From a virus: a DNA stretch of 64,000 nt. A program made the position numbers and the translations under genes. Every line of letters begins with the position of its first letter. Position 1 is the stretch's first letter. Positions 1 through 14,298 of the stretch are shown in pieces. Location: positions 1 to 64,000 of IMG/VR virus record IMGVR_UViG_3300037424_000906, one strand, 5' to 3'. The notes beneath the pieces are model-generated. The model was not told the DNA's origin. It worked only from the letters and a program-made list of their open reading frames with translations, and made no database searches.

Positions 1-223
1 CCCGCCCCGCGCCTGCCCAGCTCCGCCCGACAACCCGGCCCCGCCCAACGCCTTCCGTCCCGAATCGACTACCCGAATCGACTGCCCACGCCAACTCAGC
101 CCGGCCCCGGCCGACTCTTCCCGCCCCGGATCGACTACCCATCCCTCTCCTCCCCTGACCTGCTCTCCCCGGCCCGACAAGCCTTCACTTTCCGCCCCGG
201 ATCCCGCCATCCCATCCGACCAG
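1..223. repeat. Phased pentamer array (nCC-NN) split into units by CGAC-NN; candidate guide-RNA array for the adjacent Cas7-like gene; truncated by window start
   Basis: Manual parse gives 40 in-phase pentamers, all with C at position 3 (21 start CCC, 30 start NCC) and variable last two bases. Units end CGACAA/CGACTA/CGACTG/CGACCA at about 33, 71, 84, 137, 180, 222. Confidence 0.85.
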
Positions 224-239
224 CCAAGGAGAAATTCCA

Positions 240-908
240 GTGAGCGTGTTCGACAGCTTCAAAACCGAGATGTACCCGCACCGGTTCACCGGCCAGCTCA
301 CCGTCGGCGTCATTGCTGGGGGCACTCCGACCGATCCCAAGGTCGCCGAGGGCTGGCTCAAGACCAAGCTCGGCATCGACAAGGAAGACCTCATCCGCGA
401 GAAGGTCGCCGAGACCATGATCGAGCGCGGCATTACCGCCGATGAGGCCACCGCCATCGTTAGCGACCACAAGCACCTCAACGGCTTCAAGCGCGACCCC
501 GAGCGCGGCCTCTACATCGAGGGCCGCCAGCTCAAGGCCGCCCTCAAAGAAGCCGCCTCCGTTGCGGTTGCCGCCGGGAAGCTCACCTCCCGTGGCTGGG
601 GCAAGACGAACAAGGGCCTGCTTTCCTACCTCGCCGAGCACGTGTTCGTCGTCGAAGACCGCCTCTACCTCGGCGTCATCGAGCCGTCCGGCATCGCCCA
701 GCGATTCGTCCACACCTTCCGTGGCACCGGCATCCAGTACGAGGAGTACGTGGAGAAGGCGCAGATCGACTTCACGGTCATCGCCGACCACGACTTCACG
801 ACGAAGGAGTGGGCTGCGATCTGGACGTGCGGCGAGCAGAACGGCATCGGCGCTTCCCGCTCGCAGGGCTTCGGCCGCTACGAAGTCACCCGCTGGGACA
901 AGTCCTAG
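240..908 (+). CDS. Stand-alone Cas7/Csm3-like RAMP-superfamily protein
   Basis: LYIEGRQLKAALKEAA resembles the RAMP IPGSSLKGALR motif; C-terminal Gly-rich loop GIGASRSQGFGRYEV; 222 aa; RBS AAGGAG at 226-231. Confidence 0.8.
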   Translation: MSVFDSFKTEMYPHRFTGQLTVGVIAGGTPTDPKVAEGWLKTKLGIDKEDLIREKVAETMIERGITADEATAIVSDHKHLNGFKRDPERGLYIEGRQLKAALKEAASVAVAAGKLTSRGWGKTNKGLLSYLAEHVFVVEDRLYLGVIEPSGIAQRFVHTFRGTGIQYEEYVEKAQIDFTVIADHDFTTKEWAAIWTCGEQNGIGASRSQGFGRYEVTRWDKS

Positions 909-1098: not shown

Positions 1099-4000
1099 AT
1101 GAACACCGACATTCAGGGTAGCGCGTCGAACGTCGATGAGCTGCCAACCCTGACGCCCGAGGCACTGGCCTCGTCCCCCAGGTTCGCTGACCGCGACTGG
1201 CGTTCCGCCGACGGCCTGGACCTGTTCAACACCATCCGCGCCCGACTGGGTCTTGCCGCCGCCCAGGTCTTGTGGCTGGACGCCTGCGACATCTTCCACA
1301 CCGCGCAGGCTGCCGCCGACGTGGCACCGCTGGTGCTGCTCGTCGAGCACGACACGCGGAGCAGCGCGGTCTACACCTGCTACGACGATCACAAGGGCAA
1401 CCCGCTGACGTATCCGACCGCCCGACTGAAGTTGCTGTACGAGCGCAAGTCGCGGCCGGCGCGGTACGCCGACGGCACCCGGTACCTGCTGATCATGCCG
1501 GTCGTGAAGCGATGACCGATCTCGCCGAACGCTTCTGTCACCTGCCCGGTAAGCCGTACCAGACCGGTGCCGGCTGGACCGTCCGCTGTGCATGCGGCTG
1601 GGTCACCCCGTACGCCCAGCTGTCGGCACTCCTCGCGACCAACGAGTACACGGTTCTGCACCTCGGCGGTGCCCGATGACCGCCCAGTACGTGTACGTCG
1701 TCTGCCGTGGTGAGCACGGTGAGGGTCACGACCCGGTGTCGGTGCACGCCGACTACGACGATGCTGTTGCGTCCGTGGCTGAGGAGATCGGCGACCGGCC
1801 GATCCGGGTCGCGGCCAAGCACGTGTACGTGGTCGCGCTGTACGGCTGCGATGAGATCTGGATCTACGGCATGCCCGTACAGGGCGGTGCCCGATGAGCG
1901 TCCTGCCCGCCCGCCAGTACCTGGCCCTGTGCGTTGACCGGGCCATGGTCCACGCGACTGCCGGCGACTACCCGGCCGCGATCTCCTCGTTCACGCAGGA
2001 CGTTGCCCAGCACCCGCGCACCGCCTGGATCGCCGCGCACGACCTGACCGTGCCGTTGCTGCTCGTCGACTGCGGCGACCCGGTGCGGTTCCGTGCAGCC
2101 CTTGAGGCCTTCGTCGTCACGGATTCGCGGCGACGTTCCCGGCCCACCTCTCGTCACCTGATCGGAGCCTGACCATGGAGACCATCCCAATCCTGACCCC
2201 GGCCGTTTCGGACTACGGCCCGATCCTCGAAGCCCGGCACCCGTCCACCGGCAATGTTCTGGTCACGGCCCGGCGCTCGCACCTTGACCACGACGAGTGG
2301 ATCGGCTGGTGGGTGTCCGGTGGCGACATGTCCGAGGTCGTTGCCACGAAGGTGTCGGCCCGGCTGCTGCTGGTGGAGTTCGCGACGCATCTGCTGGCGG
2401 ATGCCTTGCGTGACTGCCCGGCGGGTGGCGCGTACGGGGCGCACAGCTTGGCGTGGCGTGAGGGTGCCGACGACTGCGACATGTGCGGTCGGGCGTCGTG
2501 GATGAGTGCGCTGACCGGTAGCTCCACCCGGATCGAGGTGTCGGCATGAGCGACCTCTACGCCGTCCGCGTCGCGCTGGAGCAGGGTCTCGGTGCCGCCG
2601 AAGCGCTGAGTACCTGGGTCACGAACCACAAGCCGCTCGCGCTGAACATCACACGCCGCCGGACCGAGGCCATCCGCGATGGTCTGCGCGCACTCGCCCG
2701 GCTGGAGCAGTCCAGCAAGCCGTGCGACCGCCCGCACATCGAGGTCGAGGTGGACTCCGGCTGCCGTTGCCACGTCGTGCGGATGCCGCCCTGCTCGTGG
2801 TGTGAGAACGGCGGTGAGCAGTCATGACCGTGTTCTCCGCGCACCAGTACCTCGTCGGTGGTCTCGTCACCCACGGCGGTGACATCGAGTGGCACATCGA
2901 CGAGCAGCCCGCCGGCTTGACCCGCGTGTGGGATGCCGAGGGTGAGGCGTGGGGTGAGTTCACCGACAGCATCGGCGTGCACTGGACGCCGGTTGACAGC
3001 GACGGCTGGCCGATCCCGGACCACCGCGAGGTGACGTGGGCGGAACTGCTCCAGGAGTGGGGCCCAGCCACCGACGAGGCTCCGACCGCCGAGCCGGTGG
3101 CGGCTACCCGTACGCCCTGCGATGCCGAGAGCCCGACCTGCTACGCGATGCCTGACGGCACCGTCTCCTGTCGCTGCATCATCTGCCACCGGTGCGGCAG
3201 GCACACGGGCAACAGCAACCAGGGTCACTACTGGGCGAGGTGCAAGGTCACCAAGACGATCCGCGACTTCCACTTCTGCTGCCCCGATGACTGCGAACTG
3301 GAGGCCAAAGCGGCTGCCGTCCGCGCTACCGCCGAAGTGCTGCTGTCCGAGACGCCCGGTGCGGGGCGGGACGGCGAGCTGTGACCGGCCTCGGCCTGCT
3401 CACGATCTGCGCCGTCGGCGCCTACTTCCTGATCTTCGCTCTGTACCGCTCACCGAAAGGAACCGACCAATGAGCACCACCGACCCGGTTGCGGCGTTCG
3501 TCGCGGCCTACAACACCGCCGAGTCCGAGCGTCTCGGTTACGCCTACAAGAGCGCACGGATCGTCGCTTCCGACGAGTCGCTGGTTGACGCCGTCGATGC
3601 GGTGCGCAGGCCATTGATCGCCGAACTTGGCGAGGCGAACGCGCGACTGCGTGCCGTCAGCACCGTGAAGTGCTGGACGGACGAGGACGGCAGGCGGTTC
3701 GTGTTCGCCAGCGACCTGCTTGCCGCCGTCGACCCGGAGGCTGCGGCTCTGGTCGCTCAGGCACGGCTTGCCGAGGCGACCCGATGAGCCCCGATTTCGT
3801 GGTCGGCATGGCCACCGGCATCCTCCTCAGTGCTGGTGGCGGCTGCCTGGCCCTCATCTTCACTGCCAAGCGTGACGCGCCGACCCCGGCCGAGGAACTC
3901 GCTGACACCCAGAACGCGCAGTGGCGTGCGGCCCGTCAGGCGGCTGGTCTCAGCTCCGAACTCGCGATGCCCGACGACATCCGGATCAGCATGGGTCGAC

Positions 4001-6393
4001 GCTTCCGGAACGCGGTCGTGGTGACGGCGCGCTGGGCGGGCCGGGCAGTCCGCTGGACGTGGACGCTGACCGCCCGGTTGGCCAGGCGTCTGGCCGCGCA
4101 GCTGCGTCGCCAGCCCGTGGTGATCCCGCCGTGGTCTGAGCACACAGACTTGGGGCCGGAAACCAACGAGCCCGAGACGGCACCCGAGGGCGAGCAGCAG
4201 CCGACCGTGCCCGAGCTGGAGCCGGTGATGGTTGTCATCCCGCCGTGGACCGACCGGCAGGGCGAGCGTCGGGCGCACGTGCCCGCGCATGCCGCCGCCG
4301 AGGTCGCCGCCCCGGTTGCTGAGCGTCGGGTGCTCGACTTCACCCTTGAGGTGCCGCCAGTCTTCGCCGGGCTGAAGAACGCGATGGAGATCCCGACCGG
4401 GCTCCTGCTCATCGTCCCGCCGAAGGTTGAGCCCGCCGGGGTGCTCGCCGAGCTCGCCGCCGAGGTCCGCGACGCCGTGACGGTCGGTGCCTGATGGCCG
4501 ACCTGAATCCGCCGATCGGTGCGCGCGTGCGCATCACCACCACCTGGCCGCAGGGCACCGTTGTTGCCCACGAGGGCATCTTCACCGGCTGGCACGAACC
4601 CGACTGGGAGTTGGACGGGCACTTCCGGACTCCGTACTCGGAGGCGGGATGGATGAACAGCTTCCGTAAGTCCGGGGAGGACCCGACGGTCACCGTCGAG
4701 ATCCTGGAACTGCCCGCGCCCGAGGAACCACCCAACGGCACCGTGCTGCAGGAGACCGGCACCGGCTGGGTGTGGCGGCACGACTACTCCGAGGAGTTCG
4801 GAGACAAGCACTGGTGGAGCGACGGCGACGACCAGGGCCACACCTGGACGGAAGTGTGCGACCGCTTGAAGGCGAGCTTTGTCGGCAGCTTCGTGCGCCT
4901 CGTGCCGGCTCCCGTAGTCAAGTTGCCGTGGTCGCTCGGCTCGTGCCAGATGACCGCCACGGTTGATGCGTCCGGCAACGGCTTCATCGACCTGACCGTG
5001 GGCAACGGGCCGTACACCGCCGACGAGGTGGAGCAGATTGCCGCCGCGTTGCTGTCCGCCGCCCGCGAGGTAGCCCGGTGAGCGCCCTCATCACCTTCGC
5101 CTGCGTCACACTCGCTGGCTGCGTGGTCGTCGGCATTGCCGCCGCTGTGGCCGGGAGCCGCAAGCAGCGCTCGACCGCACTCGCCGCACCACTGCTCTCC
5201 GACGACTACTACCCCGAGCCCGAAGAGCTGGTGCCGCCGAAGACCGGCAGCACCGTCCGCGAGTGGGGCGAGTACTTCGACGAGCAGAACCGCCGCCGCA
5301 AGCTTGACGCCCGGAAGGGGCAGCCGTGAACCTCCGCCTCAACCTCCGTGTTGCATGCGTCAGCCTTGCCCGCCGCTGGGCCGACAAGACCCTGCGCGAC
5401 GACATGGACCGCTACGACACCGAGAACATGGAACTGGCCACTGAACTCCTCGACGCCCGCGAGGAGCTGGAGTCCCAGGACGCCGGGCTCGCCGAGCAGG
5501 ACAAGCTGATCCGCAAGCTTCGCGACGAGAACTACGCCCTCCACGAGCGCTGTGCCGACCTCACCGACCGGGTTGAGGCGTACGAGCGGCGCGACGCGAC
5601 GGACAAGCGGCGGCCCCCGTACCTCACGCCCACCGTCGTCACGCTGGACGTGCACCCGGACCCGGCGGTGCAGCCGTGATCCGCGATCTGCTCCCTGACC
5701 TCGGCAGCGAGTCCGTACTCATCGCCGCCGCTGTCCTGCTTGCCGCCGGCTTCGGGCTCCTCGGCTTCGTCGTCCGCGATCTTGGAACACGCCGATGACC
5801 TTCCTCGTTGCCGCGCTCTTGGCTCTCCTCACCGCCGCCGTCTCGGTCGGCATCCGGCTTGCCAACCACAACGTGCGCTTGCTCGCCGAGCGGGAAACTG
5901 CCGACGCCCAGCGCATCGCCGACGCTAACTGGCTGCGGCAGTACGACGCGGACTTCAGCCCCGAGCGGCGGCTCGACCTCATGACCCGTGTCGCGAAGGG
6001 CGAGCCCCTCGTCGACATCTGGCTCTCGGATTGGAGCGACCTGTGAGCGACTGGAAAGACTCCCTCAACCGGGCGCTGCGCCCCGAGGTGCCGCAGGCTT
6101 CCGCCGAGCTGCTCGCGCGCCAGGAGCAGGTGACCCCGGCATGGATCGCAGACCGGGGCGTGGACTTCAGCGGCCTCCCCAGCTCGGAGGTTGTCAACCT
6201 CAAGTCACGGATCGGCTGCCTCCAAGTCGACCTCGCCAGCGTCCGCGCCGACCTCGCAAGGACGCAGGCCGAACTGAAGGCGCTGCGGGATCGGCCTGAG
6301 ACCCTGGCCGACGCCGAGTTGGCGCACCGGCAGGAGATGGCCCTAGACGTGGCGTTCAAGCGTCGCCAGGACCGCGACGAGGTGTGCCCGTGA
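1099..6393 (+). other. Run of about 15 translationally coupled small hypothetical phage genes (1099-1515, 1512-1679, 1676-1897, 1894-2172, 2175-2549, 2546-2827, 2824-3384, 3470-3787, 3784-4494, 4494-5081, 5078-5329, 5326-5679, 5795-6046, 6043-6393)
   Basis: ATGA/GTGA stop-start overlaps, one strand, GC3-rich codons; some have N-terminal hydrophobic segments. Confidence 0.7.
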
Positions 6394-7343: not shown

Positions 7344-8269
7344 CCGAGACCGCAGCCCCCGCAACCCCAACTCCGACCGCCGAAGTTGCCGTGCAGGACA
7401 CCACTCCCGCCGGGCTGATCAAGCAGTACACCAGTAGCTTCGCCGCCGTCCTGCCCAGCCACATCAAGGCCGAAACGTGGGTGCGTCTCGCCCAGGGCGC
7501 CCTCAAGAGAGGCAAGCGCATCACCGAGCGCGGCCCCGAGTTCGGCAAGTTCGAGCTCGAAGTTGCCGCCACCAACAATCCCGGCCTGTTCCTGGCCACG
7601 CTCCTCGACGCCGCCCGCTTGGGCTTGGAGCCGGGGACCGAGCTTTTCTATCTGACCCCCCGCAAGGTGAGGGGCAAGCTGGAGATCCTCGGCATCATCG
7701 GCTACCAGGGTCACATCGAGCTCATGTACCGGGGCGGCGGGGTGGTGTCCATCGTTGCCGAGGCCGTCTACAGCCGCGACCAGTTCGCGTTCCGGCCCGG
7801 CCGCGACAACGTCCCCCAGCATGACATCGACTGGGACTCCGACGACCGCGGCGAACTCCGGTTGGTGTACGCGTTCGCCCGCATGCGTGACGGGGCAACA
7901 AGCAAGGTCGTCGTCCTGAACAAGGCTGCGATTGCCCGGATCAAGATTTCGTCGGCCGGCTCCGGCTACGACTCCTCGCCGTGGAAGGTGCACGAGGAGT
8001 CCATGTGGGTGAAGAGCGCGGTTCGGCAGCTCCAGAAGTGGGTGCCGACCTCCGCCGAGTACCGGCGTGAGCAGCAGCGTGCTGATGCCGCGTTCGCCGA
8101 GCAGTTGACCGCCCAGGGCGTGAAGATCACCCCTGATGAGGTGCGGTCGATCCGCGAGGGCGGTTACGAGGCCGTGCTGGACGGGGAGATCGTCGACCAG
8201 GAGTTCGACGAAGAGGGCTGGCTGGCAACGCAGGACCCCGCGAACGAGCGCGTGGGCGGTGCCGCGTGA
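7340..8269 (+). CDS. recT: RecT-family single-strand annealing protein
   Basis: LDAARLGLEPG, IIGYQGHIELMYR, ESMWVKSAVRQLQKWVPTS motifs. Confidence 0.9.
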   Translation: MTETAAPATPTPTAEVAVQDTTPAGLIKQYTSSFAAVLPSHIKAETWVRLAQGALKRGKRITERGPEFGKFELEVAATNNPGLFLATLLDAARLGLEPGTELFYLTPRKVRGKLEILGIIGYQGHIELMYRGGGVVSIVAEAVYSRDQFAFRPGRDNVPQHDIDWDSDDRGELRLVYAFARMRDGATSKVVVLNKAAIARIKISSAGSGYDSSPWKVHEESMWVKSAVRQLQKWVPTSAEYRREQQRADAAFAEQLTAQGVKITPDEVRSIREGGYEAVLDGEIVDQEFDEEGWLATQDPANERVGGAA

Positions 8270-9402
8270 GCAGCAGCGTCATCACCCAGTACGCGGTTGC
8301 CAGCGCGGCCGGCGAGGTCGTGTCCCCGTGGTGGGAAGACACCCGCATGGGCACGTCGGAGAACCCGGTTGTGACCGCGTTCGCCCACGCCGAGCAGTGG
8401 CGTAAGGCCAACCATCTGTGGGACGACAGCTACCGGCTGGTGTCGCGGCAGGTCATCGTGTTCAGCGACCTCAAGGCGGTGTCGTCATGAGCGAACTGAC
8501 CTTGTTGCAGCGAGCCGAGATCCAGACCGCGTACCGCGAAGGCCTGCGCGCCGCCCTGGGTGCTCGCGATGTCGACTTTTTCAGCCACGCCCTGGGGGTC
8601 GCCACCGACCTTGCGTACCAGATGGGCATCGAGGCGGCAGGTGCCGGCGGTCGTACCGCCAATGAGCGCCCCTACCGCACCGGATACGCGTCTTGGGACT
8701 GGCGCGAGCAGCCCGACCTGACCCGTCTCGCCGTACTCGTCGCCGATCTGTCCGACGGCCGGGTGCATCTGCGCCAGGTGCGGACCGGCACCGACGAGTA
8801 CGCGGTGGTGGTCGCAGGCCGGCCGATGGACGACGACCAGGCGCGGTCGCTGTGGGAAGCCCTGTCCGAGGATGGGGAGATGCCGTGAGCGTCCAGGAGA
8901 TCACCGCCTACGCCATCGACTGTGACGGCGACCGCTGCACCAACCGGCTGACCGACGTCGAGGAAGGCGGCATCCTCGTCTTTCTCGAAGAAGAGCAGGC
9001 GCGGTCCCCGCTGGCCAGGTCTCAAGTTGCCCGGGCCGAGTGGTCCACCGTCGGCAGCCTGCACTTCTGTGAGGGCGATGACTGCCAGGCCGAGGCCCGA
9101 CGGGAGCGCGCCGCCCTGGCTGCCCGCGCCCCGCTGCCGGTCCTGCCCGGCCAGCTGGCCCTGATCGGTGAGGTCGCCGGGGTCCCCGTCACCTACGGGG
9201 AGGTGACCCGATGAGCTTTGACCCGCGCCTCACCGACGAAGAACGCGCCCGCCTGGCCCAGCTGCCGCGCGGCGACTGGGGATTGCGCAGGCAGGACCCC
9301 ATCGAGCGGGACGCCCACATCGGTGTGCTCATGCGCTGCGCCCAGCTGTGGCGTGACGGCATCCGGCTCGCACTACCGCAGATCCCCCGGGGCAGGCGTT
9401 AA
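8266..9402 (+). other. Four small hypothetical genes (8266-8490, 8487-8888, 8885-9214, 9211-9402)
   Basis: Coupled ORFs; the last uses a TAA supplied by the IS end. Confidence 0.65.
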
Positions 9403-13774: not shown

Positions 13775-14278
13775 CCGCAAGCCCACCAATGCCCAGCTCA
13801 ACCTGCTGCGCTCGATCGATGACGGCAACGTCGTCGGTGAGGTCGGCCGGGATGAGATCTGGGAGGTCGGCTACATCGTCACCCGGCGCGTGCGAGCAAT
13901 GCAGCGCAACGGCTGGTGCGAGCCGATCGTCAGGGGCGAATTCGAGGACTGGGTACTGACCGACGCGGGCCGGAGCCTGGTCGCTGGCGTCGAGACGGCG
14001 AGGCCGTGATGGGCGCGCACTCACCGACAGCCGACCAGCTCGGGCTGCTACGCGCCATCGGCAACGGCGAGATCCAGCTCAGCGCCCTCCACAAGCCGAG
14101 CGGGTCATGGCACGGCGACACGAACGTCACCGGTCCCGTCAACGCGCTAAGCCGGGCGGGCTGGGTTGAGCCCGGCGAGCCCGTTCCCGTGGTTGGGCGC
14201 TGGTGGCGACGGTGGCAGCTCACCACCACTGGCCGAACCGTGCTCGACGCAAACCCCTCCACTCCCACCCAGCCCTGA
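13767..14278 (+). CDS. Two tandem paralogous small winged-helix-like proteins (13767-14009, 14009-14278)
   Basis: Both share PTxxQLxLLRxIxxG ... GWxEP ... WxLTxxGR. Confidence 0.6.
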
Positions 14279-14298
14279 CCACCACGAGGAGCACCGAC

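Follow-up and report, generated by a model that had tools for sequence, protein, structure and literature searches.

A GAC-punctuated pentamer array next to a solo RAMP gene in a temperate actinophage: a probable tail-less VIPR guide array

What is to be made of a C-rich tract, at the very start of a phage contig, in which cytosine recurs every fifth base, a three-base motif repeatedly restarts the count, and the next gene encodes a protein with a Cas7-like predicted fold? Of a 103,779-bp IMG/VR record, classed as linear and estimated by CheckV to be 92% complete, the window (the whole stretch of DNA that was analysed) takes up the first 64 kb. The answer advanced here is that the tract very probably belongs to a guide array of the Viral Interference Programmable Repeat (VIPR) kind, tail-less and punctuated by GAC, in a temperate actinophage. 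First described in 2026 preprints (10.64898/2026.04.26.720920; 10.64898/2026.04.26.720927), VIPR combines a phage-borne solo RAMP protein (Vipr) with vap and vrRNAs (10.64898/2026.04.26.720920). It is a CRISPR-like means by which phages counter rival mobile elements, a months-old class of RNA-guided DNA recognition that has been proposed as ancestral to CRISPR effectors.

The pentamer lattice, its punctuation and its extent

The 5-nt phase that a preliminary description of this DNA had reported is real. C-C autocorrelation over 1-223 peaks at lags of 5, 10 and 15 nt (z 3.5, 3.3 and 2.6), values reached by 0, 0 and 4, respectively, of 500 dinucleotide-preserving shuffles, and z at lag 5 is 5.2 for the joined array dealt with below. 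With the register anchored on GAC heads only, the lattice reads N-N-c-C-C: C occupies position 5 in all 39 pentamers of 1-217, position 4 in 29 of the 39 and position 3 in 26, and positions 1 and 2 are mixed. Within this genome the lattice is unique to the array locus. (The sole other genome segment with a moderate lattice score, 18.4, is at 14241-14280 of the window; it lies within the range of shuffled controls and is probably due to chance.)

GAC heads at 29-31, 67-69, 80-82, 133-135, 176-178 and 218-220 delimit units of 38, 13, 53, 43 and 42 nt; two further GACs, at 113-115 and 157-159, are in phase inside pentamers and do not reset the register. Positions 1-28 hold five in-phase pentamers and are probably the 3′ part of a 63-nt unit that starts with a GAC at the other contig end (G000:103745, in the numbering of the whole record). 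The unit at 29-66 is GAC plus seven pentamers, with the NN order AA GG CG AA CT GT GA, and is followed at 67-79 by a short one, GAC plus two pentamers, that is a tandem duplication of its end. At 80-132 GAC precedes ten pentamers (TG AC AA AG GG CG GA TT GC GG) and at 133-175 eight (TA AT TC TC TG TG TC GG). In the head-anchored parse the unit at 176-217 is irregular and one base short, being GAC, seven pentamers and ATCC. The last head is then followed by the ribosome binding site (RBS) AAGGAG (226-231) of the RAMP gene, these features occupying 218-239 on the plus strand, and in relatives also the last head abuts the RBS.

The preliminary description had divided the tract into CGAC-bounded units with a 3-nt phase shift. 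Units there are, but their boundaries need moving, the heads lying 5 nt earlier than its cuts because these were made after CGAC-NN. A reset does take place, its exact signal being the 3-nt GAC, which becomes CGAC when an extra C precedes it, and the NN strings that had been listed are mostly right, apart from a spurious final GA on each of the first two. The short duplication placed at 72-84 is recovered by Tandem Repeats Finder as a repeat of period 13 with 2.2 copies at 59-87. This duplication is the feature that would suit a decaying, functionless pentanucleotide microsatellite, an origin that is extremely unlikely for the array as a whole given that lattice and head motif are retained beside RAMP genes only 35-55% identical, with positions 1 and 2 randomised.

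The contig end truncates the C-rich tract 1-223, and the same pattern is present in the last 131 bases of the record (G000:103649-103779). Joining the contig ends yields a junction-spanning unit of exactly 63 nt, that is 3 + 12x5, and a related prophage (L017) has a look-alike stretch spanning the same junction point, so that the contig is probably closed there. We infer a single array across both ends, of about 360 nt and with 8-9 units, of which 1-223 would be the downstream two-thirds. At its upstream limit the first GAC head overlaps the stop codon (TGA) of the preceding gene; at its downstream limit it reaches the RBS of the gene at 240-908. Farther upstream are a Cro/HTH-like gene and repeated CGCAAC motifs, which suggest a place for the module near the start of the rightward operon in the lysogeny switch of a temperate phage.

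Some observations on the surroundings are of separate interest. Read by eye, G000:102000-102900 (L002 about 8200-9100), outside the window, has the look of a putative lysogeny switch, in which a leftward repressor-like ORF is set against a rightward Cro-like HTH gene, with at least five CGCAAC-containing repeats between them that may be operators. Also outside the window, at G000:103065-103120, a second short C-rich tract is present just 5′ of the RBS of the accessory gene, and is too short for its lattice to be judged. Consensus scans for promoters and terminators, which are uninformative for high-GC phages, found none in or beside the arrays, with a single weak promoter-like site in the upstream switch region. 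About 60 nt past the RAMP stop codon, at 968-1019 of the window, there is a long GC-rich inverted repeat with a stem of roughly 15 bp; it may be a terminator or a protein site, and went uncalled in the terminator scan because no T-run follows it.

A solo RAMP gene, an accessory gene and their relatives

The vipr-like gene next to the array (240-908, plus strand) encodes a protein of 222 aa. Its AlphaFold2 model (pLDDT 71.8) has one RRM-like core, a long beta-hairpin (residues 153-182) and a glycine-rich loop, GIGASRSQGFG (residues 202-212). Foldseek places type VII Cas7 (8z4j_J, E 7.8e-6) and Csm3 chains at the top of 77 matches at E<=1e-3, and VIA-align gives Z scores of 9.8 (8yhd_A), 8.8 (9g9a_D) and 8.5 (6ae2_B), followed by Cmr4, gRAMP and Csf2. 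The fold matches include chain E of 6IFN (Csm3), which was among the structural queries used to discover Vipr (10.64898/2026.04.26.720920). At the sequence level, neither the RAMP protein nor its neighbours had a match above threshold in Pfam, PHROGs or the PDB, and family members have faint matches to RAMP, Cas6 and Csm4 models over the C-terminal glycine-rich loop. The Pfam/PHROGs screen detected no Cas families among the neighbouring genes. From model, structural matches and alignment, the protein is classed by predicted fold as a solo Cas7-type RAMP, encoded outside any cas operon among the neighbours screened. Its family comprises 739 cluster representatives at E<=1e-3, and the nearest ESM Atlas clusters are viral.

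On the other side of the array is the accessory gene (G000:103132-103650, outside the window). It encodes 172 aa, has been retained next to the RAMP gene in about 45 loci, whichever of the two comes first, and by this conserved position is classed as vap-like. The model of its product is well defined (pLDDT 91); a fold search with it gave no clear match (best Z 5.2), and the N-terminal half has several weak winged-helix-like alignments. Vap proteins of several types of VIPR are winged-helix-like or HTH-like DNA binders (10.64898/2026.04.26.720920).

Close relatives of the 240-908 protein are encoded at 13 IMG/VR loci and five genomic loci, the latter being prophages or contigs of Nocardiopsis tropica, another Nocardiopsis, a Streptomyces MAG, a Jatrophihabitantaceae MAG and a Caldilineaceae MAG. 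A profile query of the RAMP family retrieved 49 viral loci. Of 401 Actinomycetes genomes sampled, 2 have a member of the family. Queries with distant RAMP homologues retrieved no IMG/VR loci, and there is no array at one distant chromosomal homologue (L032). At about 30 loci the accessory gene and the RAMP gene are separated by an array of 160-1,404 nt in which C makes up about 0.5 and G about 0.17 of the bases, the longest, up to 1.4 kb, having about 37 heads; in a few relatives the two genes are adjacent and without an array. Head-to-head spacings in 14 related arrays peak at 33/34, 38/39, 43/44, 48/49 and 53/54 nt, with 71 of the 152 spacings being 3 mod 5 and 43 being 4 mod 5. The latter mostly reflect one extra C before GAC, in other words CGAC as 4-nt punctuation. 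Clean units are mostly of 6-10 pentamers, and the head consensus is GAC-T-[A/T/G]-CCC. In 62 head-anchored units of relatives the frequency of C at positions 1-5 is 0.22, 0.28, 0.67, 0.77 and 0.99. Between phages with 70-88% identity in their flanking proteins, homology can be recognised for few units, so that the free positions turn over fast with the lattice being held.

Gene order is not fixed. In one relative (L070) it is RAMP gene, accessory gene, array, with a second, inverted array upstream (1100-1900 and 3200-3720). The opposite orientations of its arrays and the reversed gene order identify the array as a separable module. An inverted array is also present in L075. The conserved unit is accessory gene, array and RAMP gene, since other neighbouring genes are not conserved among relatives. 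Attention is drawn to the cultured Microcystis phage Mae-JY09 (L082, PP395641.1), the sole match in a tblastn search of isolated phages, whose 35%-identical RAMP gene is annotated as hypothetical. Downstream of that gene, at 3680-4080, is the same lattice with CCGACTACCC-type heads, and then a strong hairpin near the genome end. It is a cultured member in which the architecture could be tested.

These relatives bear on the idea that the array acts at the level of DNA, as replication iterons, a partition site, or a G-quadruplex or i-motif tract, bound by the neighbouring proteins. A head of roughly 10 bp every 33-53 bp, the many GGG runs of the minus strand and the weak winged-helix likeness of the N-terminal part of the accessory protein are what such an element might display. 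Only one base per pentamer is invariant, however, and a step of 5 bp, half a helical turn, is unlike iterons. Lower-GC relatives keep the single C at every fifth position and lose the CC and CCC runs, of which they have few, implying that G4 potential is not what is conserved. In addition, the partner has an RNA-binding RAMP fold, and the published family acts via RNA (10.64898/2026.04.26.720920). An element of this type is thus very unlikely.

A second idea, quite unlikely though less so than the first, dispenses with a guide and has the array as a cis-acting leader RNA, long, untranslated, C-rich, G-poor and unstructured, on which Rho or RNase E would load and thereby regulate the RAMP gene. 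Its position inside the operon, from the upstream stop codon to the RAMP RBS, its composition (C 0.53, G 0.18), the predicted lack of structure in its RNA, and the cleavage of C-rich single-stranded RNA by mycobacterial RNase E (PMC10641625) are all as a leader would have them. However, the loading of Rho or RNase E needs neither an invariant base every 5 nt nor GAC resets. Arrays that are downstream of the genes (Mae-JY09, L070), or upstream and inverted (L070, L075), cannot be the leader of the gene in question, and some relatives lack an array altogether, their two genes being adjacent.

Comparison with VIPR and with other Cas7-like systems

At the sequence level the VIPR module is complete: there is a solo RAMP, an accessory gene conserved beside it, and a lattice of pentamers in which three bases are constrained and two are free. 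The locus is a further, somewhat unusual example of VIPR and no new category. Type II VIPR of Escherichia phage SUSP1 and of a Pseudomonas fulva prophage is likewise a phage-borne two-gene module, with one gene for a solo RAMP (about 20-25 kDa) and one accessory, and is flanked by tandem pentamers with three constrained and two hypervariable bases. The likeness to SUSP1 Vipr is one of predicted fold and architecture. Published vrRNAs have 9-16 pentamer repeats of the form YNNGG (10.64898/2026.04.26.720920), and in the structure there is one protomer per repeat, sequestering GGY (10.64898/2026.04.26.720927). Guide length is a point of likeness, with about 7-12 repeats here. Where the published fixed triplet is GGY, the one here has a single invariant base and is ccC on the plus strand or GGg, mostly with a purine third, on the minus strand. 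Such a lattice is permitted by the variant repeats NNNGG and NNNNG that have been described together with YNNNG (10.64898/2026.04.26.720920), and the fixed triplets GAC/NN, CAC/NN, WGT/NN and TGH/NN have been reported as non-canonical (10.64898/2026.10.21.760802).

Another difference is that the structured 3′ tail of type II VIPR is absent, the units abutting with only GAC or CGAC between them. A structured tail is not universal in VIPR, however. ‘Staggered’ tail-less arrays, in which each guide starts where the one before it ends, have been published, as have ribozyme-separated ones, the staggered arrays not being among the architectures confirmed by RNA sequencing (10.64898/2026.04.26.720920). 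Likened by text description, the staggered and single-invariant-base variants are the published forms that best fit the present array. Set against the SUSP1 type, the arrays of this clade are also very long, usually between vap and vipr, and have the C-rich strand on the coding strand.

The best fold matches, Csm3, Cmr4 and type VII Cas7, share an RRM core and a glycine-rich loop and polymerise along a guide whose length steps by the protomer footprint. In contrast to type III and VII Cas7 systems, the step here is 5 nt, not 6, and every repeat has fixed bases. The module is one of two genes with no CRISPR repeats, Cas6, Cas10, Cas5, Cas11 or adaptation genes. The features of class 1 CRISPR (a repeat-spacer array, a multi-gene cas operon and a 6-nt period) were looked for and not found, and there are no long direct repeats or hairpins. 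A search of Rfam identified no family. The type IV-B Csf complex also forms a Cas7-like filament, is carried on mobile elements and assembles without a CRISPR array; it differs in using heterogeneous RNA instead of a dedicated lattice and in being a multi-subunit complex (PMC7937560).

Cas7 filaments are central to a third alternative, that the array is a decoy, akin to an RNA anti-CRISPR, or a sponge trapping subunits of host type I or III CRISPR systems or another host factor. In support, RNAs that phages encode as repeat mimics give rise to aberrant Cas7 filaments (PMC10651486), and type IV-B Cas7 filaments assemble on non-CRISPR RNA (PMC7937560). Against it, the units are unlike CRISPR repeats and have no hairpin, and NN is free and fast-evolving with the lattice being kept, as expected of guides. 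The probability of a decoy or sponge is as low as that of a DNA-level element.

There is also a parallel from a quite different quarter. In TRAP-type binding the triplets that a protein oligomer reads recur every 5 nt and have 2-nt spacers between them; the fold is unrelated, the oligomer is a ring not a filament, and the spacers are information-free. A TRAP-like sponge was considered here and dropped.

As a VIPR example, the locus with its about 30 relatives extends the class to temperate phages of high-GC actinobacteria (Nocardiopsis, Streptomyces and others), with an architecture that is compact, tail-less and characterised by very long arrays. The clade is a natural test of how far the grip of the protein on the fixed triplet can change.

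Guide strand, proposed decoding and targets

By analogy with SUSP1, one RAMP protomer would bind each pentamer, holding the three constrained bases and presenting the free NN pair. Together, the NN pairs of a unit would read double-stranded DNA, with one target base skipped after every two, the skipped base being the wobble position where the target is coding, and binding would silence genes of competing phages or other mobile elements. Each GAC would fix the phase of the pentamers after it, which number 6-10 (up to 13), and guides, having no structured tail, would abut and be delimited by GAC or CGAC alone. RNA expression, filament formation and the release of units at GAC are all presumed steps. 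In VIPR the NN bases pair with double-stranded DNA and one target base in three, usually at the codon wobble position, is skipped (10.64898/2026.04.26.720920). The preliminary description had suggested guide units whose NN bases read a target, with every third base skipped and wobble changes ignored. That suggestion is supported, being essentially the published mechanism, and the locus has the parts of VIPR.

Which strand would be the guide is finely balanced. An even chance is given to the proposal that it is the C-rich strand of a vap-array-vipr operon, with the RAMP protein gripping cytosines (N-N-c-C-C) and units being cut at GA|C, for example by RNase E. Context favours this strand. Among the 35 arrays tallied at the loci examined, there are 33 in which the adjacent genes have it as their coding strand; it extends unbroken from stop codon to RBS, leaving no space for an antisense promoter, and the array transcript is predicted to be unstructured, folding no better than shuffles (z +1.2), with no hairpin or tail. 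That a G-rich RNA would carry GGG every 5 nt and be prone to quadruplexes also counts in favour of the C strand. In mycobacteria, RNase E cleaves C-rich single-stranded RNA on the 5′ side of a C that follows purines, with the preference RR|CNU (PMC10641625). A cut at GA|C would fit this preference, a sequence match that holds for the C strand and actinobacterial hosts only. The published code, by analogy, favours the G-rich strand, in that the variants spelled out (YNNGG, NNNGG, YNNNG and NNNNG) all fix G. On that strand the register of a unit is anchored at its 3′ end, as in published vrRNAs, rather like a minimal tail.

Natural targets of VIPR are satellites, prophage regulators and other VIPR systems, and self-targeting has not been seen (10.64898/2026.04.26.720920). 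Here too, as in type II VIPR, the own genome is not targeted. The preliminary description had envisaged an excess of gapped matches over shuffled controls; in the own genome, with gaps 0-4, the best gapped matches equalled those of shuffled NN orders, and the pattern that it had put forward (unit 80-132 without its head) had 0 matches in an exact scan of IMG/VR. The full unit 80-132 had one match among genome contigs, to an archaeal MAG, as expected by chance. With a 1-nt skip, the long units of the window had nothing within four mismatches in 0.47 Mb of related loci, and the first contig-end unit had 0 matches in the exact IMG/VR scan. For the junction unit, an 8-NN seed had 11 matches, all in low-GC phages, none of which extends (16-18 of 24 bases). 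No protospacer-like match was found by BLAST of the array of one relative (L016) against its own Nocardiopsis tropica host genome. Thus none of these searches yielded a target for the units of the window itself; as the scans of the collections were for exact matches only, this is weak negative evidence.

One candidate target was rejected. The second contig-end unit (G000:103697-103744) has 71 exact in-frame 1-nt-skip matches among genome contigs, nearly all to KYRCPAKHE codons in multi-copy DDE_Tnp_1 transposases, mostly of Planctomycetota MAGs. With about 17 chance matches expected (an estimate from collection size), multi-copy inflation and unfitting hosts, this is probably chance inflated by a multi-copy family, although the gene is one of mobile elements.

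A different type of result came from a test of the code in which 213 clean units from 33 arrays were compared, with skips of 0-3, with the 0.47 Mb of related loci and this genome. Overall, real NN orders did no better than shuffled ones. The exception that stands out is the last unit of the array in IMGVR_UViG_3300036851_000073 (L009), whose NN order is TT AG CA CC TC GC AC TT. With a skip of one, it matches at 16 of 16 bases the antisense strand of the vipr codons K-V-A-E-G-W-L-K, all NN falling on codon positions 1-2, in about ten distinct loci. Among these is the vipr gene of the window, at 339-361 on the minus strand. The vipr gene of L009 itself matches at only 14 of 16 bases, differing in the terminal dinucleotide. 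Against vipr genes alone, none of 20 shuffles gave a perfect match, nor did skips of 0, 2 or 3; in the whole database a perfect match was obtained with 3 of 60 shuffles, and with real and shuffled orders being equal overall, the code test rests on one guide. As sequence-based support for a 1-nt-skip code the match is real but thin. Being in frame and to rival vipr genes, it tells against both the leader and the decoy explanations, and with it the clade offers an example of a guide that would be aimed at the vipr genes of rivals.
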